From an uncultured Bacilli bacterium (GTDB lineage Bacteria; Bacillota_I; Bacilli_A; RF39; UBA660): DNA of 64,000 nt. Of the stretch, positions 15,410 through 39,552 are shown one piece after another. The position numbers and the translations under genes are program-made. The notes under the pieces are model-generated. The model saw only the letters and a list, made by a program, of their open reading frames with translations, was not told where the DNA came from and did no database searches. Location of the stretch: positions 4,755-68,754 of the forward strand of contig CAJTXY010000001.1 in assembly GCA_910583685.1 (NCBI GenBank). Reading direction: 5' to 3'. Position 1 is the first letter of the stretch; every line of letters begins with the position of its first letter.

Positions 15410-15450
15410 TCTTACACCTCGCTACTTTCAAATTCATTATATCATAAAAA

Positions 15451-21963: not shown

Positions 21964-22222
21964 CTTTTTACCTCTTTTCTTTTGATTTACTTATTTTTTT
22001 GACACCTACTTTTCCATCATAATCGTCATAATAGAAAAACCAATACTTTTTACCCTTTCTCTTATCCATATGTTATTTCCACTTTTTGTCTTATGTTCGT
22101 CATAAATAAAATACTCCCTACTTATTTATCTTCTATTTAGTATTATATCATACTGCAATCCTTTCTAAAAATTATTTTCTTACTTTATCAACTGCAATAA
22201 GTCTATTAAATATTTTTTATCA

Positions 22223-23311
22223 TTACTTGCTTTCCCTTGAAATATTAAGGAGAATCCCCATACTGACCATACTAATTAACAAGCTACTTCCGCCATAACT
22301 TAAAAATGGTAAAGTTACACCTGTTACAGGAATTAGTCCAACGACAACCATTAAGTTCATAAGGGACTGAAAAATGATTTGAAACACCATACCAAATGCT
22401 AGGTATTTCGGAAATTCCTCTTTTGCATTTAATGCAATTTTAATACCACGATATAAAAGGAGAACAAAAAGTCCACATACGATTACTACTCCCATCACAC
22501 CAAACTCCTCTGAAATGATAGAAAAAATAAAATCTGTCTGTGGTTCAGGCAAATAGAAATGTTTCTGAATGGAATTCAAATAACCATTTCCTAAAAGACC
22601 ACCTGGTCCTATTGCATAAAGAGACTGAATAATTTGAAATCCTGTTCCTAGTGCGTCACTCCAAGGATCTACGAATGAAGTAATTCTATCCATTCTATAA
22701 GGTGCAATGATGATTAAAATAACAATACCGATAATGCCTATTGCTCCACATCCCATAAAAAACTTCATATTCACTCCTGCAATAAAAAGAAGAGAAACGA
22801 TGGAAACCACTAAAATTACGCCTGTTCCTAGGTCTGGTTGTAGCATAATGAGGCCAAAGAAGAAAAGTGTTACTCCAAGTATGGGAAAGACACCGTCTTT
22901 TAAACTTTTTAAAAACTTATTACTCTTTTCTAGATACTTGCTTGTAAAAATAATAAGGCCTAATTTCGCAAACTCACTTGGCTGAATTCCTAAGGAACCA
23001 ATTCCAAACCAGCTTCTACTACCATTACGAATGCTACCAATTCCCGGAATTAGAACTAAAACCAAAAGGATCAAACAAATTAGCAAAATTAGATTGGATT
23101 TTTCTTTGTAAATAGAATAATGAATTTTGGAAATAGACATCATAATAAAAATACCCACCGCCAAAAAGATCGCCTGATACTTAATATAATGAAAACTATC
23201 ATGAAATTTATATTCTGCCCAAATACTAGAGGCAGAGTAGATCATAATCAGACCAAATACTGCTAATGTAATTACGGTTATAAATAAGGTTTTATCCAGT
23301 CCTCTTTTCAT
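22223..23311 (-). CDS. ftsW: SEDS-family peptidoglycan glycosyltransferase (FtsW/RodA/SpoVE)
   Basis: Ten TM helices, QPSEFAKL motif, and a C-terminal GGSSL-like block. Confidence 0.85.
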   Translation of the reverse strand: MKRGLDKTLFITVITLAVFGLIMIYSASSIWAEYKFHDSFHYIKYQAIFLAVGIFIMMSISKIHYSIYKEKSNLILLICLILLVLVLIPGIGSIRNGSRSWFGIGSLGIQPSEFAKLGLIIFTSKYLEKSNKFLKSLKDGVFPILGVTLFFFGLIMLQPDLGTGVILVVSIVSLLFIAGVNMKFFMGCGAIGIIGIVILIIIAPYRMDRITSFVDPWSDALGTGFQIIQSLYAIGPGGLLGNGYLNSIQKHFYLPEPQTDFIFSIISEEFGVMGVVIVCGLFVLLLYRGIKIALNAKEEFPKYLAFGMVFQIIFQSLMNLMVVVGLIPVTGVTLPFLSYGGSSLLISMVSMGILLNISRESK

Positions 23312-23339
23312 ATCATCACCCTATTAAATTATATTTTTT

Positions 23340-23385
23340 TATAACGAAAAAAGAACGAAAGAAAAAGGTATCATTCAATGATACC
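23340..23385 (-). terminator. Intrinsic terminator after the 725-aa surface protein gene
   Basis: 7-bp stem GGTATCA/TGATACC with a 5-nt loop, then TTTTTCTTTCGTTCTTTTTTCG on the minus strand, immediately after the stop. Confidence 0.5.
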
Positions 23386-23386
23386 C

Positions 23387-25564
23387 TTATATAATTACGG
23401 TTTGGATTGTTTTTGCAACAGATAACACAACTGAAGTTAATGCATCTGGAATTTCTGTTTTATCCCTTGAAGTGATGCCTCCATTTAATTCACTCTTAAT
23501 TTTGTCAATGTCAATATCAATCATAATATTTACACGATTACCATAACCATCTTTTAATCTTACAGTATCCATCATTGACTCCTCGTATATTTTAGAGAAA
23601 ATTTTGGAATTGCCTACTAATGTCCATCCCCTTGGTAAAAAGACACTTCGATTTGTTGTGATTGTTACTTTTACCTTGCCATCTTCTGTTAGACTATATT
23701 TAATATCAGAAATCTCTGGATTCTCTTTGTTGATATCAAACACTTCATATTCTACTTCTGCTATATTTCCAAGTTTATCTTGAACTTTTACTGTAGCCTT
23801 CGTATTTTCCGTAAACACTTTAGAGATTGATTTTTGATCATTTGATAAAGTCCATCCATTTTTCAAGTCTTCTAATTCTTCATCTGCCGATATCGTTACT
23901 ATTACATCCTTATTTGTTTTGATATGATCTGCATTACTAGTTGTAATTTTGATACCTGATACTTCACGATCTATATTAGAAACTATACATTCTACCTCTA
24001 TTTGATTTCCTGCTAGGTCCTCAATTGTTACTGTTTCTTCACCATTTTCTGTAAACAGCTTTGTAATTTCTGTCTTTGTAGTATTGTAATTCCAATCTTC
24101 ATTTCCTATTACCTTTATTTCTTCATCCGCAATAATTTTTCCAAGTACATCTTTATTGGTTTTTTGCATTGGACTAACCATAAAAATCGCCTTTGGTGGT
24201 GTTTTATCAATGTTATTTATTTCAATTGTAATATAGCCTGTATTTTGATAAGCGTCTGTCAGTTTTACTTTCTCTATCGTGTTTTTCTTATAGACTTTTC
24301 TAAAGACTGTTGAATTCTGCACCATTTGCCAGCCACTTGGAGCGAAAATAGATTTGTTCGTAGTGATAATAACTTCCACATCACCATTTGTAAGTTCTCT
24401 TGTACTATAAGTAATTCCATTTTCTACAATGGCTGGAATTTCTTTACTAATATCAAACACTTCGTAATTTGCCTTCACTGCATTTCCTGCTAAATCTTTT
24501 ATTTCTAGTTCTCCTGTAGTATTGGCAGCGAAAACTTTACTTAATTCTAAACCATTATCTGATAGTTTCCAACCTGAGACTGGTTGTAATTTCTCATTTG
24601 CTGTTATAAAAATAGTGACATCTTGATTCGTCTTTTCTCCATTATTACTACTTTTCACCGTAACAAGTGGTGCGGTTTTATCAATGGTAAATACTAGTGT
24701 TGCTTTTTGATAAGCACAATCTACCACCGTTACTTCGTATTTCCCCTCTGTTTGAAACGAAAGTGTCTTTTCTAAAGATACTGTTTTTCCATTTACCTGG
24801 ATCTCTTTTAGATTTTCTTCCTCAATTGTAAGAATAACATCATAGTTTACAATCGCGTTATTTGCTACTCCTGTTAATATAGGTTTTTTATTGTCATCTA
24901 AAATGATATTTAGGTTATCTAATTTTGATTTTAGTTCCAACTTTACCTTACTATCATCGATATTTTCAACTAAGGCATTTATATTTTGTTTATCTCTATA
25001 TTCTCTTGCCTCTAAAATTTCATCTCTGCTCTTTGCTGCATTTACTTTTTCCTGCAATGTTTCTACTAATTTTCTTATATCAGCATACGGATCTTTTTCA
25101 TCAGGAGAATCTGGATCTGTTGATCCTCCTGGCTTATCTGGTTTATCTGGAGTTTCTGGTTTATCTGGTTGATTTTCATTGTTATTATCAGGATCTGTAC
25201 TTTCTCCAGGTTTACCAGGTGTATCTGGATGGGTTATATTTCCTGAATCCGGATTTTGACTATTTTCATTTCCTGTAATCATATCTGCTACTGGCGGAAT
25301 TGTTACATTTTGATAGACAAAGTTTTGAATTCCTTTGGCATTATTTTGTTGTTTCCAGATATCTTGTGTCAAGTCAGTAGAAGAATTTTCTGTAAGCCCT
25401 TCTTTGGTTTCATTTTCAGAAATCGTTTTCCCTTCTTCTGGTATATATCTATTTTCTACTTCTTCTTCCAATTCTAAATACTCTTCATTTGGATTTGCAA
25501 ATACGAAAGTACCCAATCCTAAAAATAAAATAATCGCAATGATCCCTATTTTTTTCTTATTCAT
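23387..25564 (-). CDS. Large secreted/surface protein with a Pro/Asp-rich linker and at least 4 tandem Ig-like repeats (about 95 aa each)
   Basis: N-terminal signal LGLGTFVFANPNEEY resembles the SipW-cognate GGTFAYFSDKE motif. Low-complexity PDKPETPDKPDKPGG linker. Repeated blocks ...KTNKDV...WxLSxx...SKVFxxNT...ExxVxDISKExP. No LPXTG motif. Confidence 0.7.
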   Translation of the reverse strand: MNKKKIGIIAIILFLGLGTFVFANPNEEYLELEEEVENRYIPEEGKTISENETKEGLTENSSTDLTQDIWKQQNNAKGIQNFVYQNVTIPPVADMITGNENSQNPDSGNITHPDTPGKPGESTDPDNNNENQPDKPETPDKPDKPGGSTDPDSPDEKDPYADIRKLVETLQEKVNAAKSRDEILEAREYRDKQNINALVENIDDSKVKLELKSKLDNLNIILDDNKKPILTGVANNAIVNYDVILTIEEENLKEIQVNGKTVSLEKTLSFQTEGKYEVTVVDCAYQKATLVFTIDKTAPLVTVKSSNNGEKTNQDVTIFITANEKLQPVSGWKLSDNGLELSKVFAANTTGELEIKDLAGNAVKANYEVFDISKEIPAIVENGITYSTRELTNGDVEVIITTNKSIFAPSGWQMVQNSTVFRKVYKKNTIEKVKLTDAYQNTGYITIEINNIDKTPPKAIFMVSPMQKTNKDVLGKIIADEEIKVIGNEDWNYNTTKTEITKLFTENGEETVTIEDLAGNQIEVECIVSNIDREVSGIKITTSNADHIKTNKDVIVTISADEELEDLKNGWTLSNDQKSISKVFTENTKATVKVQDKLGNIAEVEYEVFDINKENPEISDIKYSLTEDGKVKVTITTNRSVFLPRGWTLVGNSKIFSKIYEESMMDTVRLKDGYGNRVNIMIDIDIDKIKSELNGGITSRDKTEIPDALTSVVLSVAKTIQTVII

Positions 25565-25597
25565 AACTCATACTCCCTACTATCCTATGTTATTCAA

Positions 25598-25640
25598 ATA
25601 TATCAAAAAAAAAGAGAAAATTCAATCTTTTTCTCTTTAA
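25598..25640 (-). terminator. Putative terminator between lepB and the 725-aa gene
   Basis: 10-bp stem AAAGAGAAAA/TTTTCTCTTT followed by a T9 run on the minus strand. Confidence 0.4.
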
Positions 25641-25695
25641 ATTTTCTAATTTCTACCATCTGTCTATAAATATGCTGTTATTTTATATAAATAAA

Positions 25696-26283
25696 TTATG
25701 ATATTAATTTGATACGGTTTATAGGAAAAATACGCAATGAGATTTTTCCTGTGATGTCACTTTTTTTAATAAGTCCTATTTTTCTACTGTCTAGGGAGTT
25801 TGTCCTATTATCGCCTAGTACTAAATACATATCTTTGGGTATTACATCATAGCCTATATCTTTTAAATGAAAATCTTTATATTTTAACTTTGTAGAAATA
25901 TACTTTTCTTGATATTTCTTACCGTTAATATGTAACTGGCTGTCTATGATATCGATATGCTCCCCTGGTAGTCCAATAATACGTTTGATTAAATATTTGG
26001 TATCTGCATACTTTAATGAGACTACATCCCCTCTTTCTATTTCAAAAAAGCGGTATCTCAGTTTATTTAAAATCAATACTTCTCCATCTTTTAATGTGGG
26101 ACTCATAGAGTCTCCTACTACTTGGGTGATGGATGCTACATAGAAAATAATAAACAAAATTAATATAATTACAATTGCATACTTTGCTATATCAAAGAAT
26201 AATTCCCGAATATCTAACCAATCCATATAATACTCCTTACTACTATCAGACATCATTATATACCAGCAATTCTTAGAATGCAA
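25696..26283 (-). CDS. lepB: Signal peptidase I (bacterial LepB/S26A type)
   Basis: SM/K catalytic boxes: VVGDSMSPTLKDGEVLI and YLVLGDNRTNSLDSR. Confidence 0.8.
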   Translation of the reverse strand: MHSKNCWYIMMSDSSKEYYMDWLDIRELFFDIAKYAIVIILILFIIFYVASITQVVGDSMSPTLKDGEVLILNKLRYRFFEIERGDVVSLKYADTKYLIKRIIGLPGEHIDIIDSQLHINGKKYQEKYISTKLKYKDFHLKDIGYDVIPKDMYLVLGDNRTNSLDSRKIGLIKKSDITGKISLRIFPINRIKLIS

Positions 26284-26296
26284 GAGTATTTAGTTA

Positions 26297-27898
26297 CTAT
26301 TCTATTTGTTGTTCTTCTGATGTTACGTGATCACTTATAATTTCCTGTTCTTGTGGTGGTACTGTTACATTCGTGGTGGAGTAATCGCTTACATTGCCAT
26401 TTTCTTCTGCTGGCGGCTCATTTATTACAGCAGGCGGCTCCTCTTCTTGTTTTTTTGTCACTTGAAAAGTAAGGTAACCATCTAATACTTGATAGGTATC
26501 ATTTTGTCTTTCCCAGGCAAATTTGTCACAGAGAGTGTTCATTAATGAAATTACATCCATTTGTGCAACATCTCGAGTGTCATAGTAAACTTGAATTTCA
26601 TAGGAATCCGTTTGTTCTATTATAGATACTGGCATAATAAAGGCTTCATTATAACCTTCTTTTAATACAATTTCTAACAGTATGCTACCGTTCTCATCCC
26701 CTACTACAAATTGTTTTTTATCACTAAGGGCGGCCTCATAAGTCATCGATACCCAATTTAAAATATCTTCCTGTTCTAGTAATTGTGCTTTTAGGGCATT
26801 AGAAAGAGTAGAATTCTGATTAATTGCTGTTTTAAAGAATTCTTTTTTCTTATCAGACTCTGGAGAATATAGTGTAACAGAAGAGTCCGTAACTAATTCA
26901 TATGCCTTTTCCATTAGACTCTCATCCAATACTAGTTTTCCTTCTGTTTTATCAAGAGTGATTCCTGGTACTACTATTTGTCCATTCCATAGTGCATAAA
27001 TACCATCTGTAGAGGCAATATAGTTAGAAATAAGATAGTAATTATCACGATTATTAAAACAATAATATTCTGCTAAATAGTATTCAAATGTCTCTTCAAT
27101 GGATGTTTTCTCATCTGTTGTAAAATACATAACATTTTTATCCACTTGGTTTATATTCTCATAATAGGTACGTGCGTAGCCAAGGAAGCTATCTAAAACG
27201 ACATAATTATAGTCATAATAATCACGGTAATCAATTTGAAGTCCTAAAATTTCATTTGGATTTTCGCAAGCTTTGATGTAACTTTCTATTTCCTCTTTAT
27301 AAGCATAAAGATATGGGTTATTTATCAACAAATTTTGAATTAGACTATCTTGAAATTGCAACATAGTTTCATCTGTGGTATCCTTCTCTTCTAATTCTAC
27401 AGATTTGGAAATAGGTTCTAAGTAGTGATATTCTTTATATAAAAAATATGCTTCATTCTCTATACTTTCCAATGCCGATACCGAAACATCCAACTTGCTT
27501 TCTTCTGTTATAATTTCACTTGTTTGTAAATTGCATATAAATTCTACTTTTATTTTTTCTTCTTCCTCAGGAATGATGAGGCTATTTTCAACTAAAGTCT
27601 CACAACCATTAGGAAGTACTAATTTATAGTTAGAGCTCTCATTTGTCATTACATTAGTACTGTCCTTAGGGATGAAAAGAGAGAATGTTGCTGTTTCTGT
27701 CTCAAGTTGTTCAAGGGTTATAGTGCCAACATCACTTTGTTTTTGAAAGGCTAATGTAGAATGATATTTTAAATAATCTGTTCTTTTTTCTTGATATTTT
27801 GCATTAGACTCAGGACAATGAAAAAGAAAGAAAGATACAAAGAATAAAAAGACAAGACAACTTGTTTGAATGGTACTTTTATATACTTTATTTTTCAT
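26297..27898 (-). CDS. Secreted protein of unknown function (533 aa, acidic, Tyr-rich)
   Basis: Signal peptide with an SNA|KY cleavage site. No recognised domains. Confidence 0.55.
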   Translation of the reverse strand: MKNKVYKSTIQTSCLVFLFFVSFFLFHCPESNAKYQEKRTDYLKYHSTLAFQKQSDVGTITLEQLETETATFSLFIPKDSTNVMTNESSNYKLVLPNGCETLVENSLIIPEEEEKIKVEFICNLQTSEIITEESKLDVSVSALESIENEAYFLYKEYHYLEPISKSVELEEKDTTDETMLQFQDSLIQNLLINNPYLYAYKEEIESYIKACENPNEILGLQIDYRDYYDYNYVVLDSFLGYARTYYENINQVDKNVMYFTTDEKTSIEETFEYYLAEYYCFNNRDNYYLISNYIASTDGIYALWNGQIVVPGITLDKTEGKLVLDESLMEKAYELVTDSSVTLYSPESDKKKEFFKTAINQNSTLSNALKAQLLEQEDILNWVSMTYEAALSDKKQFVVGDENGSILLEIVLKEGYNEAFIMPVSIIEQTDSYEIQVYYDTRDVAQMDVISLMNTLCDKFAWERQNDTYQVLDGYLTFQVTKKQEEEPPAVINEPPAEENGNVSDYSTTNVTVPPQEQEIISDHVTSEEQQIE

Positions 27899-27899
27899 A

Positions 27900-28508
27900 T
27901 TACTTTCCTCCTTTTAATTGTACTGCTGAATAATCAACGGTCACTACCTGTTTTGATATTTCATTTTTCTCTTGATATTCATAATAAGGAATTTCTTGAT
28001 TATGATAAACTAGATTATCTCCCTTATACTTCACAATCAGCTTATAATAGGTATTTTTTCCCTCATTAGGTGCTTTTACTGTTTCTAATTTTATTTCATT
28101 TAAAGTTCTTTTTCCCGTTAAGTCAATCTCTTCATAAGTGCCTTCTTCCCCGCTCTTAGCATATAAGCCAACGATTTCAAAATCAGTGGCAACTGAAATG
28201 GAAAGCACGAAGAAAACACTTACTTCAAATTCCGTAGAGGCTTTGAAATAATAAGGGATTTCAGTGGCTGGACGATAGTGTCCTGCCTCACAAATCTCCT
28301 CACCTTCTCCAGGATTACATCCATCTACATTAAAGTAGTCAATATCGATATTGAACTTTGCTACACGTGCTGAAGATTCGCTACTAAGCATAGAAACATA
28401 TTTAGAATAAGTTACTACTGTGGTAAATAGTAATAAAACTCCAATATACATTCCTAAATAACGATAGAATTTTCTTCTGAAATGTTCATTATGAAATAAA
28501 TTTTTCAC
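27900..28508 (-). CDS. Small secreted protein with a SipW-cognate-like N-terminal motif (TasA/camelysin-like substrate candidate)
   Basis: TM anchor, then YSKYVSMLSSESSARVAKFNIDI. It shares the [ST]YAKY...SARVA[KV][FW] motif with the 32125 gene. It sits immediately downstream of a sipW. Confidence 0.5.
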   Translation of the reverse strand: MKNLFHNEHFRRKFYRYLGMYIGVLLLFTTVVTYSKYVSMLSSESSARVAKFNIDIDYFNVDGCNPGEGEEICEAGHYRPATEIPYYFKASTEFEVSVFFVLSISVATDFEIVGLYAKSGEEGTYEEIDLTGKRTLNEIKLETVKAPNEGKNTYYKLIVKYKGDNLVYHNQEIPYYEYQEKNEISKQVVTVDYSAVQLKGGK

Positions 28509-28514
28509 AGATAA

Positions 28515-29174
28515 TCACCCTCTTCGTTGTTTTCTTTTGGCCCTCTTCTTTCTTTTTTTATTTTTTTTATTCTTTTTTATTGAAGTAGTTAGAATTTCCT
28601 TTTTTGCACTTATTTTCTTTCGGCTTTCATTTGGATTTTCTAAATACTTTAAAAACTCTTGATATTCTTTAGTATCCGCTAACACAACTTCTTCGTTTGG
28701 CATTGTCAAATAAGAAATGGTAGCTATGAGTGTAATTATTATAATCACGATCAGTGGATTTTTTAACAGAGCAATCACTTTCCCTGCTCCTCTTATATGA
28801 AAGATATATTTTCCAACAATTTTGTCCTTTTTTGTTTTGCCATCTTCTGTATGATTATGGTCTCCTTTTGTTATCACTGCTTCTTTTTCGGCGGCAACAA
28901 TACGATGGGTTACAAAACTTCCTTCCTTATCATAAAAAGTGATAATATCATCTTTTTTATACTTTTTGTCTTTCATATCAATAATGATATAATCACTTTT
29001 TTGCAAGGTCGGTTCCATAGAAGATGATACGACTTCTAACATTGCATAACCAAAAAATGGAGCAAGCGGTTTTTTCAATATCTTGAAACAGACAAAATTA
29101 TAAATATTTATTAAAATAATTAAAGTCAGGAAAAGGCCACTAAATATTACGGTTATTTTTCTGAATCTTTTCAT
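28515..29174 (-). CDS. sipW: SipW-type signal peptidase I (archaeal/ER Sec11-like, S26B) with a highly basic C-terminal tail
   Basis: FGYAMLEVVSSSMEPTLQKSDYIIID...THRIV...TKGDHN matches SipW/Sec11 catalytic boxes. C-terminal KKNKKNKKRKKRAKRKQRRG tail. Confidence 0.8.
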   Translation of the reverse strand: MKRFRKITVIFSGLFLTLIILINIYNFVCFKILKKPLAPFFGYAMLEVVSSSMEPTLQKSDYIIIDMKDKKYKKDDIITFYDKEGSFVTHRIVAAEKEAVITKGDHNHTEDGKTKKDKIVGKYIFHIRGAGKVIALLKNPLIVIIIITLIATISYLTMPNEEVVLADTKEYQEFLKYLENPNESRKKISAKKEILTTSIKKNKKNKKRKKRAKRKQRRG

Positions 29175-29183
29175 TTTTCCCTC

Positions 29184-32030
29184 CTACTTACAAAGTTTAT
29201 TTGTTTTAAAATGAAGGGCAACTGATAAAAAATAACGATCGTTTAAAGTTTCATCAAATTTTGCTTGTGCTGCTTGATTTCCAATTAGTGTATCTAATTT
29301 ATCGGACTCAGAATCCATCTCTACCCATTTCCAGAAAATCGTAATTGGTGCTTCTTCTCCTTTTTTAAGGGTAATTGGCTGATTGAAATTGATTTTCTTT
29401 CCTTTGTAATTAGGAAGAGTTGGATCTACATCATAATTTAGAACCTGATATTGATCTAGATTTCCATAATAGTAATAGGCTTCTTTTCCTAAGGCAGGAA
29501 TATGTCTTACAATATACCCCATATTCAAGCACCCTTTTTTAGGAATACAAATGGTATCTTCTAATAATGTCATTCCTGTAAGGGTAATGGAGTCTGCATA
29601 TTCATTTTTAAAGTTTGCAATGTAGTAGCCTTTGGCACCTGGGTAAATGACTTTATCTTTATGATATTGGTTGTAGTATTCCTCATTATGGAAAATCGGA
29701 ACATCTTTTAGCCATAAGACCTCTTCCAAAAGATCATCTGTTATGGGAATAGAAACCGAGTCATAAATTGCAAATAATTCTAAATCATCATCCAAGTTTT
29801 CAATTATTTTTTTATCTGACCGATTATATAGAATTGGTCCATCTATAGTCTTACTATAGCCAAGGAACTTATAATATTTACAGTGATCCTTCTCATCTAA
29901 CTTATATGGTTCATCATAGTCAGATAAGTCGATCTTTTCATCAGCAGAAATTTCGAATTGATAGTGATCTTCTGCTGCGTTGAATTGACCACCATTAGCA
30001 GAAAGAAAAACTGAATATTTACGAATTATTTCAATAGGAATCGATAAATTTTCAAATTCCTTTCCATTTAATACTCCACGAATAGTCAAAGTGGCTCCTC
30101 CAGGATTATTTCCATAAACCCCAATTGGTAAATAGCTTGGTGCTTCCTCAGAAGAGTCATAGGCAAGATATTCGATATTCTGATCGTTAGTAGAAACAAT
30201 GATACAAGTGTCTTGTTGCTTCAAAGAACATATTTTAATTTCCTTTTTATCATCACTTTCACTGACGGAAACTTTTCCTGTAAATATATTTGTATTTAGA
30301 ATAACATCTATATTTCCGCGAATATTTCCCGTTTCATCTTTAGAAACACTCATCTGGTATTTATCTTTTGAGGAATTTAAGTATGCTTTCACATCATCAA
30401 ATATAACTGTTGTTGTAGTAGAGGCATCTTGGTAATCTAGAGAGAGTTTTATACTCTGATTCAGAAATTTGTCCTTTAAAGTCTCGTCTGGTTTTAATAC
30501 TAAAACTCCCTTTTCAGGATTTTCCACTGAAATTACAGACGAAAATTTTTCGGAAATACTAGCACTAATTTTTGAATGATCATAATCAGTCGTTTCTATT
30601 CCATTCTTATATACTTTATATAAGATTGCAAAATCCAAGTTTTCTGTATACATCGAAAATTGGTATAAATTGCGATCAAATTTCAAAGTATATTTCGATT
30701 CCCTGTAAATATTAACAATGTAGTCTTTTAATGTTCCATCTTCAGCTCGAACTGTTATTACGACCTTGTTATCTCCATACTTTAAGTCTAAATCCTTTAA
30801 AGAAGATACTTTCTTTCCATTGTAGGTAATTTCTGCTTTGCTACTCTCGGCAATTGCTTTGATATCAATTTTATCTGTATTTGCATCTACTACTACCTTG
30901 TACTCTGTTTTCTCTTTTGAAAAATCGGGACTCAATTTACCTACACTTACTTGAATATCTTTCAAGTAGGCATTTGTATCTTTTTTCGCATCTTCCTTTT
31001 TCTCACGATGAATTGTAATGGTATAGCTTTTTGTTGAACCATCTTCCGCCCGAACTGTTATTACTACTGTGTTGTCACCATACTGAAGAGGAAAATCTTT
31101 TAGCGAAGATAGCTTCTTTCCATTATAGGTAATCACTGCGTTGCCACTTTCGGCAATTGCTCGTATATCGATTTTGTCAACACTGGATCCTACCTGTACA
31201 TAATAAGATGTACGATAAGGAGAGAATTTAGGAGACAAAGTTCCTGTACTTAGTTTAATATCTTTTAAGTTGCAATTTGCATCTTTATGTTTCTTTATTG
31301 TAATTTCATTTATTACTGTCAACAAGTATTTGGCCTTATATGTTTTGCCACGATAGCGAAGTGTTAATGTGATTGTTACTTTTCCTGTTTTAAATGCAGT
31401 AATTTTAAAATAACCATCTTTCAGCTCCACTTTTGCAATATGCTCATCACTAGAAGAAACCTTAGGACGGCCGCTTAGCCCAATAAATTGGTAGGTTACA
31501 AGCTTCTCATTCGTTTCTGCTAAGTTTATTGTCCCTTTTTGAGAAGATAGCTTAATAGAAGGTGCCACTTTTGTCTTTCCTACTTTAGCCAAAAGCGTCG
31601 CTTCATAGTGCATATGATTTGTTGTAGTTTGTAAGACTACTGTAACCGTTCCTTTTTTATGAGTATTGATTACAACATATTTTCCTACTACATAGCAGGT
31701 TGCTACAGAGGCATCACTTGTAGTACAAGAAAACTTTTGAGGTTTTATTTTTTTATATGAAAATCCTACTTTAGCTTTTTCTCCCACAGAAAGTTCCACG
31801 TAGTTTCTATCAAATTTTAACTCTTTATTTCGACGGGTTTCTAAATCTAGAATTTCTTTCTCAATGGTATAATCCCCTTGATTAAAGAACTCATCCCCAA
31901 TTTTGCCAAAAAACATAGAAGTACAACTGCAACTGGTAAGTAAAGTTATCAGAATAAGAATAATCATAATAGCATAGATGATAATATGTCTCATTCGGTT
32001 TTTGTCTTCTTGCTTTTCATCATGTATCAT
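29184..32030 (-). CDS. Giant surface lipoprotein (948 aa) with two cadherin-like beta-sandwich domains plus additional Ig-like domains
   Basis: Lipobox LLTSC. Two about 90-aa repeats: LKDI.LS.G.LSP.FS...T.Y.V.V.....KIDI.AIAES..A.ITYNGKK.SSLKD..L.YGDN.VVITVRAEDG..K.Y...I.RE, matching the cadherin-like domain pattern. Confidence 0.7.
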   Translation of the reverse strand: MIHDEKQEDKNRMRHIIIYAIMIILILITLLTSCSCTSMFFGKIGDEFFNQGDYTIEKEILDLETRRNKELKFDRNYVELSVGEKAKVGFSYKKIKPQKFSCTTSDASVATCYVVGKYVVINTHKKGTVTVVLQTTTNHMHYEATLLAKVGKTKVAPSIKLSSQKGTINLAETNEKLVTYQFIGLSGRPKVSSSDEHIAKVELKDGYFKITAFKTGKVTITLTLRYRGKTYKAKYLLTVINEITIKKHKDANCNLKDIKLSTGTLSPKFSPYRTSYYVQVGSSVDKIDIRAIAESGNAVITYNGKKLSSLKDFPLQYGDNTVVITVRAEDGSTKSYTITIHREKKEDAKKDTNAYLKDIQVSVGKLSPDFSKEKTEYKVVVDANTDKIDIKAIAESSKAEITYNGKKVSSLKDLDLKYGDNKVVITVRAEDGTLKDYIVNIYRESKYTLKFDRNLYQFSMYTENLDFAILYKVYKNGIETTDYDHSKISASISEKFSSVISVENPEKGVLVLKPDETLKDKFLNQSIKLSLDYQDASTTTTVIFDDVKAYLNSSKDKYQMSVSKDETGNIRGNIDVILNTNIFTGKVSVSESDDKKEIKICSLKQQDTCIIVSTNDQNIEYLAYDSSEEAPSYLPIGVYGNNPGGATLTIRGVLNGKEFENLSIPIEIIRKYSVFLSANGGQFNAAEDHYQFEISADEKIDLSDYDEPYKLDEKDHCKYYKFLGYSKTIDGPILYNRSDKKIIENLDDDLELFAIYDSVSIPITDDLLEEVLWLKDVPIFHNEEYYNQYHKDKVIYPGAKGYYIANFKNEYADSITLTGMTLLEDTICIPKKGCLNMGYIVRHIPALGKEAYYYYGNLDQYQVLNYDVDPTLPNYKGKKINFNQPITLKKGEEAPITIFWKWVEMDSESDKLDTLIGNQAAQAKFDETLNDRYFLSVALHFKTNKLCK

Positions 32031-32124
32031 TTTATTCGCATCCTTTCTTAATATTTAAGTTTCAAATAAACCTACGAGTTATTTTTCATAGGCTTATTTG
32101 GAAGTTAAATAAACTTCCACTTTA

Positions 32125-32835
32125 TTATTTAGTTGGTTTCTTTTCAGATTGAACAACATCAATCTTAACGCTAAGTGTAACATTTGCTTGTGCTCCTGTT
32201 GAACCATCTTTAGCAATACCATTTCCTAAATTAGTATCTTCTGCGTCATCACCATCGATAACCCATTCCCAACCGATTACATAAGTATGGTTAGGAGCAG
32301 TATTTGCTGCGTAAACTCCATTAAGCTCAGATCCAATTCCATTGATTAAGGCATTAATGTCGTTGTACTTTTCAGCATCAGTAAAGGCAAGAGATTGGAA
32401 TGTAGCTCCTGTTAGAGTTTGTCCAGTTACATCTCTTAGATAATATTTCATTTGACCATTACCTTTTGTAGTAATTTCATCAACTGAAGAATTATCGCTT
32501 ACTGTTAATTCATAGTTTGTTTCTGGTTTATTTTCACCTAAAGTGAATGTATAAATTCCAGAAGTACCTGGTGCTACCACTTTATCAGTACCATTTGCAG
32601 ATTCAACATCAACAGCATTATCTTGTCCTGCTAATGTAGTAGTATAAGATGCTGCAAATAAATTGATTTCGATTTCCTTATCGTTTTCAAATCCCCAAAC
32701 GGCAACACGTGCAGAATCAGTGAAAGAAAAATCTCCCACATATTTTGCATAAGTACCACTTACAGAATAACTAGTAATACCAACAAGTGCTAACAATGCA
32801 CAAAGAACTGTCATTTTCTTTTTCATCATTGTCAC
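32125..32835 (-). CDS. Secreted protein with a SipW-cognate-like N-terminal motif (TasA/camelysin-like substrate candidate)
   Basis: Signal then SGTYAKYVGDFSFTDSARVAVWGF, where GTYAKY resembles the GTFAYF motif of the SipW-cognate class. Immediately downstream of the second sipW. Confidence 0.55.
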   Translation of the reverse strand: MTMMKKKMTVLCALLALVGITSYSVSGTYAKYVGDFSFTDSARVAVWGFENDKEIEINLFAASYTTTLAGQDNAVDVESANGTDKVVAPGTSGIYTFTLGENKPETNYELTVSDNSSVDEITTKGNGQMKYYLRDVTGQTLTGATFQSLAFTDAEKYNDINALINGIGSELNGVYAANTAPNHTYVIGWEWVIDGDDAEDTNLGNGIAKDGSTGAQANVTLSVKIDVVQSEKKPTK

Positions 32836-32890
32836 CTCCTTTCTTAGATGTCATTTATATGTAAACCCTATAAAAGGTGTTTACCAGTAA

Positions 32891-33544
32891 TTATTTATTT
32901 TGCTTTGACTTTTTAGAATTCTTATTTTTTTCCTTTGTTTCTTGTTGTTCTCTCATTTTCTTAAATTCTAAAAACTCCTGACGTTCTCTTTCTCTTTCTT
33001 TTTTCGTAGAAATAGAAAAGCCAATTACAAATATTAAGGTAATTCCTAAAAATACTATAATAATAGTTGTTGGTTCTGCCAAACTATTCATAATAGAACC
33101 AATACTTGGAAATCTAGCAATATAAAGCCCTTCTACATCGCTAAATTCGACTAGATTTTTATCCTGTGCTGAGTTATTGTCACCTTTTGTAATAAAATAC
33201 TTCTCTCCATCTTCTTCTACAATATCAATGATACGATGGGTCGTAACAGTATTTTCAGCATCACGGAAAGCGATGACATCTTCCTTTTTTAGTGTTTTGG
33301 GATTTACCATTTTAGTTAGTACTAAATCACCTTTATGTATTTTGGTCTCCATTGAATTAGAAAGAACAATAAATGGTTTATACCCAAATACATTTGGCAC
33401 CTTGTCCTTGTTAATTTTTGACTGAACCATAATATATAAGTTCATAATTAAAATAGGCACCAATAGTAAGCATATTACAACAAAAATGATATTGCTTATT
33501 TTTTGATACCATACTTTTGATTTTTCATTTTCCATACTAATCAC
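32891..33544 (-). CDS. sipW: SipW-type signal peptidase I (second copy) with a charged C-terminal tail
   Basis: FGYKPFIVLSNSMETKIHKGDLVL...THRII...TKGDNN. C-terminal KKERERERQEFLEFKKMREQQETKEKNKNSKKSKQNK tail. Confidence 0.8.
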   Translation of the reverse strand: MISMENEKSKVWYQKISNIIFVVICLLLVPILIMNLYIMVQSKINKDKVPNVFGYKPFIVLSNSMETKIHKGDLVLTKMVNPKTLKKEDVIAFRDAENTVTTHRIIDIVEEDGEKYFITKGDNNSAQDKNLVEFSDVEGLYIARFPSIGSIMNSLAEPTTIIIVFLGITLIFVIGFSISTKKERERERQEFLEFKKMREQQETKEKNKNSKKSKQNK

Positions 33545-33863
33545 CTTTCCCTATTTTCATTCATTGAAAATTTTTAGACAAAATAATAAAACAATTGCAA
33601 TCTTTTCTTTTGCTATTTATTCAGTAGTAAAGGGATTAGATCATTGTTTTATTATTTCTTTTTATTCTTTTATTATAAAAGCTTTTTGGCTTTGCAAGTT
33701 CTATAATAACATAAAGTATTATTACTTCACAACAAAAAAATACATTTTTTTCACTTGCTATCTTTTTTTCAAGATTTAAGTATAATAAAAAGACCAATAT
33801 TCCTGGGATCATCAAACAAAATTTTTCTTACTTGTTTTTTTATAACCTATTGATCTTTTGCTT

Positions 33864-34256
33864 TTAAATTTCTGAACTCATCATTAGCTTATAAATTGCT
33901 TTGATGTTTTCTTTCTTATCGTGGTTCATTTCAATAAAGTTAAGATGTAGTTGATAGCCACTATCTAGGCTAAATAATAACTCTACCTTTCCTGGTTTAT
34001 AGTTAATTGCACTAGACGATATGGAACGATATGGAATAATATGAATTTTCTTGTAATATACACCTAGGGTATCTCTATCAAATAGAATCATCCTTTTGCT
34101 TGTAAAAACTACATAGTCTTTACTGTTCTTATAAGCAAAAACGAATTTTTCTTTTGCATCAATATATTCTCTTGCATATTCCTCTAACTCTTCTTCTTTT
34201 ACTTCATATTTAAAGTCAAAGTATTTTGCCAATTCTTTAAATTTAATGTATGCCAT
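33864..34256 (-). CDS. Small cytoplasmic protein, possibly a bacterial PH (YokE-like) domain
   Basis: Beta-rich pattern ...FVFAYKNSKDYVVFTSKRMILFD...KKIHIIPYRSISS...VELLFSL. Start set at MAYIKF; weak assignment. Confidence 0.35.
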   Translation of the reverse strand: MAYIKFKELAKYFDFKYEVKEEELEEYAREYIDAKEKFVFAYKNSKDYVVFTSKRMILFDRDTLGVYYKKIHIIPYRSISSSAINYKPGKVELLFSLDSGYQLHLNFIEMNHDKKENIKAIYKLMMSSEI

Positions 34257-34710
34257 ACACTCACCTCTTTTATTATCAAAGTTATTGTAACACACTTAAT
34301 TACAGAAGGAAAGCGCAATGTAAAATTAGACATTTTATTGACAGGAGCTATTTTCTGATATTTACATTTTGAATACATTATTATTTACGTTTTTTGTCAT
34401 ATTTTCGACATTTTTTGACGTTTTCGAATCCCTTTATTTTACTTTTCTATTTAACACTATATTTTTTATTGACACTATATTTGTACTCGGTTTTTACTGC
34501 TTTTCGTTTTGTCTCATAGATAGATTATTGAACACTACCGCCTTATTCCTATAAGTTTTTTTACAAATAAAAAGAGGAAAATAGATTGTATTTCTTCTGT
34601 CTTATTGTTATCATACTACAAGACTTCACGCACTTCCTCTTAGTGATCTATTGTACTCATTTTACCATTTTTTCTTCGAGTCATCCCCACATATTCTATC
34701 AATAAATTTC

Positions 34711-34737
34711 TAATAAAAAAAGGCGTTTTTGCGCCTT
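34711..34737 (-). terminator. Intrinsic terminator after mraY
   Basis: Stem AAGGCG/CGCCTT with a TTTTTG loop, followed on the minus strand by TTTTTTTATTAG, directly after the mraY stop. Confidence 0.6.
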
Positions 34738-34739
34738 AT

Positions 34740-35720
34740 TTATAACCATACTCCAAAGATAATTCCACTCATTGCTAGGATCAAACCGCCTACCCAAAAT
34801 AGCTTTACAATATCAGTTTCTGCCCATCCTAACTTTTCAAAATGATGATGAAGCGGTGTCATTAAAAATAATTTTTTGTGTAATACCTGTACCCAAAATG
34901 TCTGTATGATAACACTTAATGTCTCAATTACGAAGACACCTGCTACTACTAGCAACGTAAGCTCTCTATGCGTAAGAATAGCAATCGCAGCCATTGCCCC
35001 TCCTAGGGCAAGGGAACCTGTATCACCCATAAATACTTTTGCAGGATGCGTATTATAGATCAAAAATCCTATTAAACTTCCCACCAAAATTAAGCAAAAT
35101 AGACCAATGTCCTCGAAACCGACCATCAGAGATATTAGACTAAAAGCAATAAAGGCAATCGCAGAAAGACCACCTGCTAAGCCGTCTAAACCATCTGTTA
35201 AATTAACTGCATTCGAAGCTCCCACTAATACAAAGAGAATAAACAAACCATAAAGCCAGCCCATTTCAATATCAATATTTAATGTGCCAACAACCCAGGA
35301 AGTTTGCCCCCCACTACGCATATATATGTAGAAAAAGCCAATTGCAATTAAGACTTGCATAAATAGCTTTTGATAGGTAGTAAGTCCCTCATTATTTTTC
35401 TTTCGAATCGATAAAAAATCATCTAAAAAGCCAATTACAGCATACCCTACAAATACTAAAAGTACAATTCCTAGATTCGATGAGTATGAAACCTTATTGG
35501 TTAATAGTAAGCCCAAAGTAGTAATTACAGTTGGGGCAATAAAAATCAGTCCTCCCATCGTCGGCGTTCCCGATTTTTTTCTATGGTTTTCTCCTACAAA
35601 TATACTGATCGTTTGCCCTATTTTTAATCTTTTCAAAATTGGTACTAAAATAAGGCCTAAAACCGCTGAGGTTAAAAATCCAATCATAATTGCAAATACA
35701 GCTTTTGTTAAAAGCAACAT
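34740..35720 (-). CDS. mraY: Phospho-N-acetylmuramoyl-pentapeptide transferase
   Basis: TPTMGG and NAVNLTDGLDGLA motifs, 10 TM. Confidence 0.9.
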   Translation of the reverse strand: MLLLTKAVFAIMIGFLTSAVLGLILVPILKRLKIGQTISIFVGENHRKKSGTPTMGGLIFIAPTVITTLGLLLTNKVSYSSNLGIVLLVFVGYAVIGFLDDFLSIRKKNNEGLTTYQKLFMQVLIAIGFFYIYMRSGGQTSWVVGTLNIDIEMGWLYGLFILFVLVGASNAVNLTDGLDGLAGGLSAIAFIAFSLISLMVGFEDIGLFCLILVGSLIGFLIYNTHPAKVFMGDTGSLALGGAMAAIAILTHRELTLLVVAGVFVIETLSVIIQTFWVQVLHKKLFLMTPLHHHFEKLGWAETDIVKLFWVGGLILAMSGIIFGVWL

Positions 35721-35811
35721 TATTCTTCACTCCATTTCTTCGTAAGTATTATACCACATAAATTTACTCTATATTAGAAAACCCCTAATTTTAGACAAAA
35801 CTTTACATTCG

Positions 35812-37716
35812 TTAGTTTAGTAACAATCGAACAGTCCCACCTTCTGCTAATTTTTCACCAGCTTCTGGCGATTGTGAGATGACTTTTTCACCAGTTCCAG
35901 AATACTCAACAGTAAAGTTTTCTAACCTTTTTTTAGCCTCTTTTACATCCTTTCCAACTACATTTGGTACTTTGTAAGTAATTTTATCAGTCCATTCCAA
36001 GTCTTTTGCCATCTCTCCATCTTGCTTTTCAATCCCTAAGGCATCGATAATATCTAAGAGTATTTTTCTTGCTACTGGTGTAGTAGTATAGCTAGAAAGT
36101 TGAGCTGTATTTTTAGGATTATCAATCGCAATATATAAAACAGCTTCTGGATCATTTGAGGGAACGATTCCTACAAATGACATTATATAATTATTCACCA
36201 GATATCTACCATCTTCTACCTTTTGTGCTGTACCCGTTTTTCCGCCGATCCGGTAGCCTTCAATAAAAGCAGCCTTTCCTCCCCCTTTTGCAACGACACT
36301 TTCTAGGGCTCTTCTCATAATCTTAGATGTTTTTTTGCTAATTGTTTTTCTTACGACTTTTGGGTCTGTTTTTTGGATCACATTCCCGGTTTCTTTCTCC
36401 ATTACATTTTTCACAACATATGGTTGATATAAATTCCCTCCATTTAAAACGGCAGATACTGCTGTTACCTGTTGGATCGGCGTGACACTTACTCCTTGTC
36501 CAAAAGCAGTGGTTGCTAATTCTACATTTCCTACTTGATCTAAGTTAAAAATAATCCCCTTTCCTTCTCCATTTAAATCAATCCCTGTTTTTTCACCAAA
36601 TCCAAATAAGTCTAGATAGGAAAATAGCTTTTCCTTCCCAAGGAGTTGCCCCATTTTTACAAAACCTGGGTTGCAAGAGTTTTGGAGGACTTGTAAAAAG
36701 GTTTGATGCCCATGGCCTCCCGCTTTCCAACATTTGATACGGGCAGTATCCACCTGAACAGATCCAGAGTCAAAAAACTCATCTTTGTCCAAGTCAATTA
36801 ATCCTTCTTCTACTACAGCTGATGTCGTAATAATTTTAAAGGTGGATCCTGGTTCATAAGATGCCCAAATAGGTAAGTTTCTAGAAAGTTCTTCTGTTGA
36901 ATAGTTTTGATAGTTATTAGGATCGAAGTTTGGTCTACTACTCATTCCTAAGATTTCTCCTGTCTTAGGATTCATCACTACAGCTAAGGCCATTTCTGGT
37001 GAAAACATATCCACTACATTGTCCAGTTCTCGTTCTAATGATTTTTGAATATTAATATCAATTGTTAGTTGAATATTTAATCCATCTTGAGGCGCTACAT
37101 AAACGTCTGATAGGTTCAAGCGATTTCCCTTGGCATCTGAAAAGTATTTGATTGCTCCAGCTTCTCCAGTTAAGTATTTGTCATACTCTAATTCTAGCCC
37201 TGAGAGGCCCTGATTATCAATTCCAACATATCCTAAAACGTGCGAAAGTAAGTTGCCATACGGATAATACCTCTTAGCCTCTTTTACTAAATACACCCCT
37301 TCTAACTCTAATGCTGAAATCTTATCTGCTATCTCAAATGAAAGTCTTCTTCCTTCTGGGTGAACTCTTTCAATAGAAGTTTGTTTGCTCACGTGTGCAT
37401 ACATCTCTTTATAACTCACATTCAGAATGTCAGCAAGTTTCTTTGCTACTTCTTCTTTATTTTTGATTTGGTTGGGAATTAATACAAGTGAAGTTGTAGT
37501 TAGATTATCGGCAAGCACAACCCCATTTCTGTCCAATATTAGCCCACGACTTGCTTCAATTGGCAGATCTCTACTCCATAAATCTTTTGCAAGTGCAGAA
37601 AGTTTTTTGTAATCAAACACTTGAATATAGAAAACTTTAAATACGACTAAAAAGAATAATAAAGTAAAAATTAGAAATGTAATACGAATTCTAGCATCAA
37701 TCTTTTTTACAAACAT
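35812..37716 (-). CDS. Class B penicillin-binding protein (FtsI/PBP2B-like transpeptidase) with one C-terminal PASTA domain
   Basis: STFK, SCN and KTGT motifs. C-terminal PASTA-like VPNVVGKDVKEAKKRLE...ISQSPEAGEKL. Confidence 0.85.
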   Translation of the reverse strand: MFVKKIDARIRITFLIFTLLFFLVVFKVFYIQVFDYKKLSALAKDLWSRDLPIEASRGLILDRNGVVLADNLTTTSLVLIPNQIKNKEEVAKKLADILNVSYKEMYAHVSKQTSIERVHPEGRRLSFEIADKISALELEGVYLVKEAKRYYPYGNLLSHVLGYVGIDNQGLSGLELEYDKYLTGEAGAIKYFSDAKGNRLNLSDVYVAPQDGLNIQLTIDINIQKSLERELDNVVDMFSPEMALAVVMNPKTGEILGMSSRPNFDPNNYQNYSTEELSRNLPIWASYEPGSTFKIITTSAVVEEGLIDLDKDEFFDSGSVQVDTARIKCWKAGGHGHQTFLQVLQNSCNPGFVKMGQLLGKEKLFSYLDLFGFGEKTGIDLNGEGKGIIFNLDQVGNVELATTAFGQGVSVTPIQQVTAVSAVLNGGNLYQPYVVKNVMEKETGNVIQKTDPKVVRKTISKKTSKIMRRALESVVAKGGGKAAFIEGYRIGGKTGTAQKVEDGRYLVNNYIMSFVGIVPSNDPEAVLYIAIDNPKNTAQLSSYTTTPVARKILLDIIDALGIEKQDGEMAKDLEWTDKITYKVPNVVGKDVKEAKKRLENFTVEYSGTGEKVISQSPEAGEKLAEGGTVRLLLN

Positions 37717-38565: not shown

Positions 38566-38997
38566 CTACTCCAGTTCCAAAACTTCTATTTCGTCAACAA
38601 CAGCTAGCTGTTGTTCAATAATAAGCTTTAATTTTCTTTTAAATATTTTCATATTTTTCTCTATAACTTCTCGATTTACTTCGATTTTTTCTGCTTTTAG
38701 TAATGCTTCATTCACGATGCGATCTGCATTATGTTTTGCATTATCTATAATCATAGCAGATTCTTCTTTGGCTGTATTTTTTATGTTTTCGCCATTTATT
38801 TCAGCATTTCTTACAGCCTGTTTTAATGTTTCCTCTATTCTGCGATAATGCTCTAATTCACTTTTTAGCCGATCGATTTCTAGTTCTTGATGTCTGCATT
38901 TATTGACAATGTCTTCTGTTTGTGTAATAACATCATTAATAAATCGATTTACTTCATTGCGATTATATCCATTTGCCTCATAATTAAATTTTTCCAT
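38566..38997 (-). CDS. DivIVA-domain protein lacking the canonical N-terminal membrane-binding segment
   Basis: FNYEANGYNRNEVNRFINDVI matches the DivIVA motif F...RGY...EVD.FLD.V, followed by a coiled coil. An upstream in-frame TAG precludes a longer N-terminus. Confidence 0.5.
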   Translation of the reverse strand: MEKFNYEANGYNRNEVNRFINDVITQTEDIVNKCRHQELEIDRLKSELEHYRRIEETLKQAVRNAEINGENIKNTAKEESAMIIDNAKHNADRIVNEALLKAEKIEVNREVIEKNMKIFKRKLKLIIEQQLAVVDEIEVLELE

Positions 38998-39456: not shown

Positions 39457-39552
39457 TTTATTTCCTCCATTCAAGCCTATCTTATCTTAACTATCTATCA
39501 TTGTAGCATATTTTTTTTATTTATAAAAGTATAAATTTGAAAATTTAATTAC

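Follow-up and report, generated by a model that had tools for sequence, protein, structure and literature searches.

The 64-kb window analyzed here, from an uncultured bacterium of the RF39 order of Bacilli, carries a division and cell wall (dcw) gene cluster that is divided into three blocks by two long spacers. RF39 comprises uncultured, fast-evolving, genome-reduced gut Bacilli that are predicted to be walled, to have an incomplete meso-diaminopimelate (m-DAP) peptidoglycan pathway and, probably, to sporulate (PMC10868615). FtsW homologs at 65-95% identity to that of the window come from metagenome-assembled genomes (MAGs) named "uncultured Tenericutes" or "uncultured Bacilli", from Clostridium sp. 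CAG:417 and CAG:451 and from Ca. Faecimonas. The window has ~31% GC and a GC skew that is negative throughout; just five of its ~60 genes lie on the plus strand, the remainder on the minus strand. Genes were identified by Pfam and NCBIfam scans of open reading frames (ORFs) of at least 100 aa. In the direction of transcription, the map runs from HD, ybaK and herA-like genes through sepF and divIVA, a single plus-strand gene, pbp and mraY, the first spacer, ftsW, the second spacer and a murG-to-ftsZ run to infC-rpmI-rplT, rpsB and tsf. The three blocks are composed as follows.

35812-37716, minus strand: block 1, pbp, class-B penicillin-binding protein (FtsI/SpoVD-like), 634 aa (Pfam Transpeptidase 4.7e-81, PBP_dimer 1.6e-27, one PASTA domain 3.5e-13)
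34740-35720, minus strand: block 1, mraY, 326 aa (Pfam Glycos_transf_4 6.6e-37, MraY_sig1)
22223-23311, minus strand: block 2, ftsW/spoVE-type SEDS gene, 362 aa (Pfam FTSW_RODA_SPOVE 1.1e-116)
6761-13223, minus strand: block 3, murG-murB-divIB-X441-ftsA-ftsZ (Pfam), whose genes are the next six
12144-13223, minus strand: murG
11233-12141, minus strand: murB
10545-11225, minus strand: divIB
9216-10541, minus strand: X441, 441 aa, 10 predicted transmembrane (TM) segments, no Pfam or NCBIfam match
7917-9179, minus strand: ftsA
6761-7903, minus strand: ftsZ

An earlier note on this DNA had described three co-oriented minus-strand blocks holding these genes, and the domain scans confirm each gene and its place. 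The order pbp, mraY, ftsW, murG, murB, divIB, ftsA, ftsZ is that of a canonical dcw cluster, all on the minus strand, but the run is interrupted by 11,428 bp of non-dcw genes between mraY and ftsW and by 8,999 bp between ftsW and murG. The note's figure of about 9 kb for the second island thus stands, while its first island measures 11.4 kb rather than 10 kb. That all blocks share one strand is equally correct yet carries little information, because so few genes of the window lie on the other strand and the skew stays negative from end to end. In Bacillus subtilis the cluster reads mraZ-mraW-ftsL-pbpB-spoVD-murE-mraY-murD-spoVE-murG-murB-divIB-ylxWX-sbp-ftsA-ftsZ. The window has the same relative order of pbp, mraY, the SEDS gene, murG, murB, divIB, an unknown membrane protein, ftsA and ftsZ; in contrast to B. 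subtilis, its murE and murD slots lack these genes, mraZ, mraW and ftsL are absent, and foreign genes fill the mraY-SEDS (11.4 kb) and SEDS-murG (9.0 kb) junctions. X441, between divIB and ftsA, sits in the slot of ylxW/ylxX/sbp of B. subtilis; in other RF39 clades, genes other than ftsA come after divIB.

MraZ, MraW and Mur-ligase domains are missing from the scanned ORFs of the window, and neither six-frame translation of the whole window nor tblastn with Mur ligases of relatives reveals a Mur-ligase P-loop or remnant. MraZ, MraW and Mur ligases are likewise absent from the 75.6 kb examined of the 84.6-kb contig, the intergenic DNA of the window shows no pseudogene traces either of Mur ligases or of the genes that relatives carry as cargo (see below), and no ftsL-sized ORF lies upstream of pbp in the window. 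The observation that murD, murE, murF and ftsL do not lie between the blocks therefore holds.

Junctions around ftsW in related species

The comparison set consisted of 80 related species, one genome each, viewed over 10 kb on either side of ftsW; window proteins were mapped onto the loci of relatives (L numbers), and leftover ORFs were called and clustered (C numbers). As the source is a MAG, the split might be an artefact, with a chimeric contig joining unrelated pieces. The exact FtsW protein, however, is encoded on contig CATLHO010000001.1 (MAG GCA_949948905.1) and, with the same neighbors, on four contigs obtained from other samples: u533 or a sipW gene of the first spacer, then ftsW, then the histidine kinase (HK) genes of the second follow in identical order in L002-L005, which were assembled independently from four further samples. 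Both junctions are also common to the species-level relatives L006, L007 and L089, and composition is uniform. We give a chimera next to no credence: the arrangement is not an assembly artefact, because the same order surrounds ftsW in L002-L005 and mraY, island and ftsW follow one another in the related species L089. Across the comparison, the two junctions take the following states.

mraY-ftsW, 34 loci: directly adjacent, 15-95 bp apart, no murD
mraY-ftsW, 24 loci: co-oriented, with 1.0-8.4 kb between
mraY-ftsW, 3 loci: rearranged
mraY-ftsW, 6 loci: no mraY within at least 5 kb upstream (the window's own locus included)
mraY-ftsW, 14 loci: not assessable
ftsW-murG, 10 loci: colinear within 10 kb, gaps of 156 bp (L085) to 9.4 kb
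ftsW-murG, 3 loci: inverted
ftsW-murG, 43 loci: no murG within 5-10 kb

The adjacent state spans most clades of the FtsW tree, including L009, the sister of the small clade to which the window belongs. The 24 interrupted mraY-ftsW spacers hold roughly ten unrelated gene sets, among them (i) a transglutaminase-like protein, (ii) a phosphoglycerate mutase (iPGM) with a ZIP-like transporter, (iii) an aminopeptidase-like with a kinase-like protein, (iv) a Tim44-like protein, (v) ABC transporters with a giant secreted protein, (vi) other SipW/DUF5305 gene sets, and (vii) a module of AMP-ligase, HK and Hpt genes; some of these labels (ZIP, aminopeptidase, ABC) were read from sequence, not from a family search. 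The split is thus not special to this genome: the mraY-ftsW spacer holds different cargo in 24 other species, and in 43 species murG is not found within 5-10 kb of ftsW. Within its order, this genome ranks with the better-clustered ones.

The earlier note had proposed a synteny comparison to date the insertions. The comparison bears out that the three blocks derive from an ancestor in which they stood closer together, given the mraY-ftsW adjacency in relatives, and that the first island is a later arrival: L009 and 33 other species have the two genes 15-95 bp apart, and the operon that fills the spacer here lies elsewhere in other RF39 genomes. Displacement of murD, murE, murF or ftsL by the islands, in contrast, finds no support. 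The 34 adjacent loci lack murD, and no Mur ligase occurs between mraY and ftsW in any assessable RF39 locus; Pfam-confirmed Mur ligases (C34) are encoded at other places in L025, L059 and L065, and in L064 upstream of mraY. Gap positions and contents vary by species, but murD is gone from this slot in every assessable locus. The removal of murD, murE, murF, mraZ and mraW from the cluster therefore probably predates the islands and is order-wide; the cluster would have been stripped earlier.

Two proteins were considered for the vacant slots and rejected: C1 (~500 aa, at the pbp-mraY junction of 22 relatives), taken as a candidate murE, is a coiled-coil membrane protein without Mur domains, and C110, a candidate murD between mraY and ftsW in L064, is camelysin-like with BspA-type leucine-rich repeats (LRRs). 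C1 is 500-570 aa long with a C-terminal membrane segment, occupies in ~22 loci (e.g., L050 6254-7777) the position that is the murE slot of other Firmicutes, and is absent from the window, where the pbp-mraY gap is 91 bp. On the other side of ftsW, L008 and L009, which are the closest two outgroups to the clade of the window, carry a giant ORF (C65; at least 1663 aa at L008 2563-7668, at least 2543 aa at L009 1965-9600) directly 3' of ftsW, where the window has a DHH gene.

Contents and boundaries of the two spacers

The spacer between mraY and ftsW is filled by a single putative operon, listed here in the order of transcription.

33864-34295, minus strand: bacterial PH-domain (bPH) protein, first gene of the operon (Pfam bPH_1 2.7e-14); precedes the operon in L086-L093
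32891-33544, minus strand: SipW-type (archaeal/ER-type) signal peptidase I, copy 1 (TIGR02228, 100.9 bits; cut-off 51.85)
32125-32835, minus strand: u236, TasA-like secreted subunit, likely the major fiber protein (N-terminal ..SGTYAKY.. signal; 268 homologs)
29184-32030, minus strand: 948-aa membrane-anchored protein with two cadherin-like beta-sandwich domains, putative adhesin (Pfam Cadherin-like 4.8e-28)
28515-29174, minus strand: SipW-type signal peptidase I, copy 2 (TIGR02228, 73.9 bits; cut-off 51.85)
27900-28508, minus strand: u202, no Pfam family, ..TYSKYV.. stretch near the N terminus
26297-27898, minus strand: u533, no Pfam family, N-terminal hydrophobic segment
25696-26283, minus strand: LepB-type (bacterial) signal peptidase I (Pfam Peptidase_S26 1.4e-43)
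23387-25564, minus strand: u725, secreted repeat protein, last gene of the operon; directly upstream of ftsW in L005-L007, L011 and L089

Both SipW-type genes score above the curated TIGR02228 threshold, as expected of a SipW/TasA fiber operon, so the label sipW stands. No Pfam family covers u236; its AlphaFold (AF2) model (pLDDT 86.8) has a sole Protein Data Bank (PDB) match below E 1e-3, the TasA fiber 8aur, at E 3.6e-4 and a TM-score of only 0.26. The 948-aa cadherin-like gene has an internal 168-nt repeat, always follows the TasA-like gene and is conserved in L086-L094, where the order of u202 and u533 is also kept. No NCBIfam or Pfam family covers u202, u533, X441, u240 or u250, and u725 and u203 (in the second spacer) have marginal sub-threshold matches only. 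As in tapA-sipW-tasA of B. subtilis, dedicated SipW-type peptidase genes adjoin genes for small secreted beta-sandwich proteins; unlike that operon, this one has two SipW copies and a LepB-type peptidase, the 948-aa cadherin-like, the bPH and three further secreted proteins, and no recognized TapA homolog, the fiber itself being a predicted one.

Contigs that encode u236 homologs revealed the operon, in the same gene order, in other RF39 genomes.

L089, 58% identity to u236: same site, between mraY and ftsW
L086-L088, 74% identity: adjoins GerA/GerAC
L090, 48% identity: 8 kb downstream of ftsW
L092, 42% identity: adjoins MerR/YbjQ
L094, 42% identity: adjoins SpoIVA

L088 belongs to the same assembly as L006, where u725 lies directly upstream of ftsW. 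The first island is thus a portable RF39 operon whose mraY-ftsW placement is restricted to one genus-level clade.

The ftsW-murG spacer differs in make-up.

21052-21963, minus strand: DHH/DHHA1 phosphoesterase (Pfam)
20609-21055, minus strand: Nudix hydrolase (Pfam)
19518-20447, plus strand: DUF3419-like protein (Pfam)
17334-19208, minus strand: AMP-dependent ligase (Pfam)
15451-17262, minus strand: hybrid HK, ~6 TM segments, HisKA-HATPase-REC (Pfam, TM scan)
14627-15409, minus strand: Hpt-REC protein (Pfam)
13944-14555, minus strand: u203, small membrane-anchored TasA/camelysin-like protein, paralog of u199 by alignment
13290-13889, minus strand: u199, small membrane-anchored TasA/camelysin-like protein, paralog of u203, directly upstream of murG

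The AMP-ligase/HK/Hpt-REC module (14627-19208) is also represented in distant RF39 clades, by orthologs of 49-69% identity that are again close to dcw genes, though placed differently. They lie near mraY or ftsW in L018, L034, L036, L074, L077, L079 and L080, ordered mraY-(AMP-ligase)-HK-Hpt-ftsW in L074 and L080 and inverted upstream in L018 and L036; in at least four distant RF39 clades the module stands within 10 kb of mraY or ftsW, whether between the two, downstream of ftsW or inverted upstream. Its genes could encode a conserved phosphorelay that serves the envelope or division. u203 and u199 each have an N-terminal membrane segment. A Peptidase_M73 (camelysin/TasA) match is found in 6 of 21 relatives of u199 (best E 1.1e-5), u199's own E of 0.039 falling short of the threshold; u199 is homologous to C110 of L064, which passes it. 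The u199 model (pLDDT 76.6) has as top fold matches CanA 9hdi and the archaeal bundling pilin 7ueg, at E 3e-4 to 1e-3 and TM-scores of 0.31-0.35; comparison of the u199/u203 profile with PDB sequences gave chance SUMO matches only (E ~0.2) and was set aside. The donor-strand fibers TasA (8aur), archaeal bundling pili (7ueg) and CanA (9hdi) are thus the best structural matches at this locus, at TM-scores of 0.26-0.35, and the M73 signal of the u199 family, weak yet consistent, the passing score of C110 and the TasA-family folds matched by u236 and u199, low as these TM-scores are, make the label tasA-like reasonable.

The u203-u199-murG arrangement is common to L007, L017, L043 and L051, and u203 alone occurs in many more species; where it stands alone, a small conserved protein (C43) is often next. 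In L064 a u199-like domain is fused to BspA LRRs (C110), between mraY and ftsW and again beside ftsZ. u203 and u199 look like conserved lineage genes rather than accessory ones. The idea of the second spacer as one accessory island must be given up, with orthologs of the AMP-ligase/HK/Hpt module and of u203 in distant RF39 clades; the spacer is composite and older than the first island.

Another possibility, that both spacers came in by horizontal transfer as mobile genomic islands and entered the dcw cluster by site-specific integration, draws on the compactness and kept gene order of the first island, on its different chromosomal sites in different genomes and on a Y1 transposase ~4 kb downstream of the operon in L094. 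Against it, ORFs of 13224-22222 and 23312-34739 encode no integrase, transposase or recombinase domain, the borders have no direct or inverted (att-like) repeats beyond short AT-rich chance repeats, and no tRNA or other RNA gene lies there, the only tRNA being at 42652-42725. The islands have a GC content of 0.29-0.34, against 0.29-0.36 elsewhere, with the skew unchanged; key genes of the second spacer have the distant orthologs just described; and the site of the first has been kept while fiber subunits diverged to 58% identity (L007, L089), which fits long vertical inheritance. We regard mobile islands as unlikely.

Terminator-like hairpins lie at three boundaries between islands and dcw genes.

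34737-34720, minus strand: terminator-like hairpin with U7, directly after the mraY stop (-8.1 kcal/mol, z = -2.5)
23388-23364, minus strand: 11-bp hairpin with U-rich tail, between u725 and ftsW (-11.2 kcal/mol, z = -3.5)
13291-13278, minus strand: weak terminator-like hairpin with U7, between u199 and murG (-6.8 kcal/mol, z = -1.3)

The second is the intrinsic terminator that had been predicted at 23340..23385. It forms part of a conserved cassette: in the 90 bp upstream of ftsW, aligned for ~20 species, the hairpin is followed by GTTCTTTTTTT, a TATAAT/TATACT box and then AGGTGAT-ATG (window 23312-23392). The layout is the same whether mraY (L009, L037, L049, L062), u725 (the window, L089, L007) or another gene lies upstream, and L009, which has no island, keeps the hairpin, -10 box and ribosome-binding site (RBS). 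The -10-like box stands only ~8 nt before the RBS of ftsW, which would therefore have a very short leader. A further promoter-like element, TTTAGA-16-TGATATAAT, follows ftsW at 22169-22142. An Rfam scan of 5000-45000, with E values up to 0.1, gave only a tRNA, 6S RNA and a weak L20 leader; the long leaders that precede the fiber operon yielded neither a riboswitch nor any other regulatory RNA.

These elements suggest that the mraY-ftsW junction was already insulated before the operon arrived. The operon would have entered between the mraY stop and the ftsW cassette, whose hairpin may now serve as its own terminator; an insulated junction would tolerate insertions, and insulation argues against coupling by read-through. 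The earlier note had suggested that the expression or localization of the fiber genes could be coupled to septal growth; on this view, selection would hold the fiber and adhesin genes in the division locus, for example through read-through into ftsW. This idea gains from the SipW/TasA-like genes that several independent lineages of differing gene content have no farther than 10 kb from ftsW (L020, L032, L039, L064, L090), from u203/u199 as the immediate upstream neighbors of murG throughout a large clade (L007, L017, L043, L051) and from the two positions of the u199-like C110 in L064. Yet a strong hairpin and U-tract part the operon from ftsW and another follows mraY, the ftsW -10/RBS region is alike with and without the island, the operon also occupies non-dcw sites (L086-L088, L092, L094), the mraY-ftsW spacer is empty in 34 species, and shared orientation is uninformative where nearly all genes lie on the minus strand. 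Selection for such coupling thus seems improbable, and coupled expression in particular is unlikely if the three boundary hairpins and the conserved hairpin/-10/RBS of ftsW act as their sequences predict; a functional link of the fiber genes or the phosphorelay to division has a slim chance in our view. Somewhat broader is the idea that RF39 dcw junctions, above all the 20-90-bp mraY-ftsW spacer with its conserved cassette, are preferred landing sites that time and again capture surface and envelope-sensing modules, the candidates being SipW/TasA-like operons, the u203/u199 pair upstream of murG and the phosphorelay of a 6-TM hybrid kinase and Hpt-REC protein; this, too, we consider doubtful.

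Probable cluster erosion and relocation of the fiber operon

Order-wide erosion of the dcw cluster combined with local relocation of the fiber operon is the probable explanation of the split. Gene identities, gene order in relatives, the other sites of the operon and the terminator hairpins are seen directly in the sequences; we infer the direction of change, by parsimony, as well as transcriptional independence and the neutrality of the insertions. We posit that the Mur ligases, mraZ, mraW and a recognizable ftsL left the cluster before RF39 diversified, leaving a skeleton of pbp-mraY-ftsW ... murG-murB-divIB. The pieces of this skeleton would be separate transcription units with intrinsic terminators at their bounds, and DNA placed in the junctions would therefore leave flanking genes undisturbed; ordinary rearrangement could then have broken the junctions repeatedly. 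In one genus-level clade, a self-contained operon of ~11 kb, predicted to encode a SipW-dependent TasA-like fiber and a cadherin-like adhesin, would have moved into the ~20-60 bp between the mraY stop and the ftsW terminator/promoter and been inherited vertically since. The ftsW-murG spacer would be made up of the lineage-conserved AMP-ligase and phosphorelay genes and the u203/u199 pair, which precedes murG in a large clade, together with the DHH, Nudix and DUF3419-like genes. Relocation by ordinary rearrangement is preferred over arrival as a mobile island because integrase, border repeats, adjacent tRNA or regulatory RNA and a shift in composition are all lacking.

Several points weigh against this explanation. 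Polarity comes from parsimony on a neighbor-joining tree of one protein, FtsW, with an arbitrary root, and "no murG nearby" in relatives means not within 5-10 kb, in views of 10 kb per side of ftsW. Transcription units are predicted by scanning for consensus signals; of the three hairpins, the one ahead of murG is weak (z = -1.3), and the scan of the window found no terminator after ftsW. The Mur-ligase search of this genome covers 75.6 kb of the 84.6-kb contig; murC-F, if this genome has them, would lie outside that part. There is no sign of how the fiber operon moved, and a neutral model does not predict the SipW/TasA-like genes near ftsW in the five unrelated loci named above, an excess that is small and is a raw count over 21-kb views, uncorrected for phylogeny.

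Flanking genes and RF39 among lineages with split clusters

Upstream of block 1 lie three further genes.

39022-39474, minus strand: sepF (Pfam), upstream of pbp instead of downstream of ftsZ
38566-38997, minus strand: divIVA (Pfam), upstream of pbp instead of downstream of ftsZ
37821-38543, plus strand: conserved gene of unknown function between divIVA and pbp

The order sepF-divIVA-(plus-strand gene)-pbp recurs in L089 (2732-4417), and the pair is upstream of pbp in no other relative seen. The window pbp is intact. The pbp gene upstream of mraY is reduced to its 3' part (from residue ~345 or ~410) in six relatives (L012 3100-5437, L014 2692-4978, L023 3508-6055, L032 1051-3598, L050 3887-6179, L071 3176-5691), in all of which a large serine recombinase gene (Resolvase, Recombinase and zinc ribbon) abuts the break point or overlaps it; in four more species (L028, L042, L052, L076) the contig ends at or near the same two points. 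The arrangement recalls the elements with recombinase genes by which sporulation genes of other Firmicutes are interrupted, and suggests that a spoVD/ftsI-type gene is split here by a skin-like intervening element; no mention of spoVD was found in the papers on such elements that were searched. A "reduced presence of spoVD" has been reported for RF39 (PMC10868615), and the interruption may bear on it.

A second SEDS (FtsW/RodA/SpoVE) gene lies with two CotZ-like spore-coat genes 5-9 kb past the high end of the window (L097 1894-4284), and the divisome SEDS may therefore be either one. The CotZ-like genes, a CoatF gene at 59357-59674 of the window and the second SEDS gene fit the published prediction of sporulation in RF39. 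Farther from the division genes, ribosomal proteins S2 (3100-4104) and L20 (4126-4716) have C-terminal Rho_N/SAP-like domains (Pfam E 1.4e-11 and 6.1e-08), unusual fusions; a 6S RNA lies just upstream of infC (5685-5870, minus strand, 51.7 bits, above the gathering score), the L20-leader match at 5486-5609 (minus strand) is weak and below threshold, and the tRNA at 42652-42725 (plus strand) adjoins an MvaI/BcnI-family restriction endonuclease gene (42823-43557).

Split dcw clusters have precedents: in Streptococcaceae, mraW-ftsL-pbp2x-mraY lies apart from murD-murG-divIB (ftsQ)-ftsA-ftsZ, and most Clostridia have a DCW1/DCW2 split (PMC8136486). The RF39 case shares with them a derived Firmicutes lineage, a pbp-mraY piece apart from a murG-divIB-ftsA-ftsZ piece (as the window map has it), dispersed mur genes (as the places of the Mur ligases in relatives indicate), the absence of mraZ, and preserved order and orientation within pieces. 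In contrast to these families, the pieces here still lie on one strand within 31 kb, ftsW is a piece on its own, murD, mraW and ftsL are in no piece, sepF-divIVA lies upstream of pbp, and the break points differ among species of one order instead of being fixed in a family. The RF39 peptidoglycan paper (PMC10868615) does not mention dcw, murD, murE or synteny, and we found no published description of the RF39 split. More extreme and more variable than its precedents, the split adds an example to a phenomenon already known and is not a new phenomenon in itself.

The dcw cluster is often regarded as among the most stable of bacterial gene arrangements, and with RF39 a large uncultured host-associated order joins the lineages in which it has decayed. 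The decay is visible at species resolution, one short spacer having been opened many times and variously filled while its terminator/promoter cassette stayed intact. Gene-neighborhood inference around dcw genes is accordingly unreliable in RF39, and pathway surveys may overlook mur genes or spoVD when they look for them where they would normally lie. If the dcw junctions were preferred landing sites after all, the division machinery of these reduced Bacilli would have functional ties to the making of envelope fibers and to a dedicated phosphorelay. Wherever it lies in the genome, the SipW/TasA-like operon makes a candidate surface-fiber and adhesin system of gut RF39.

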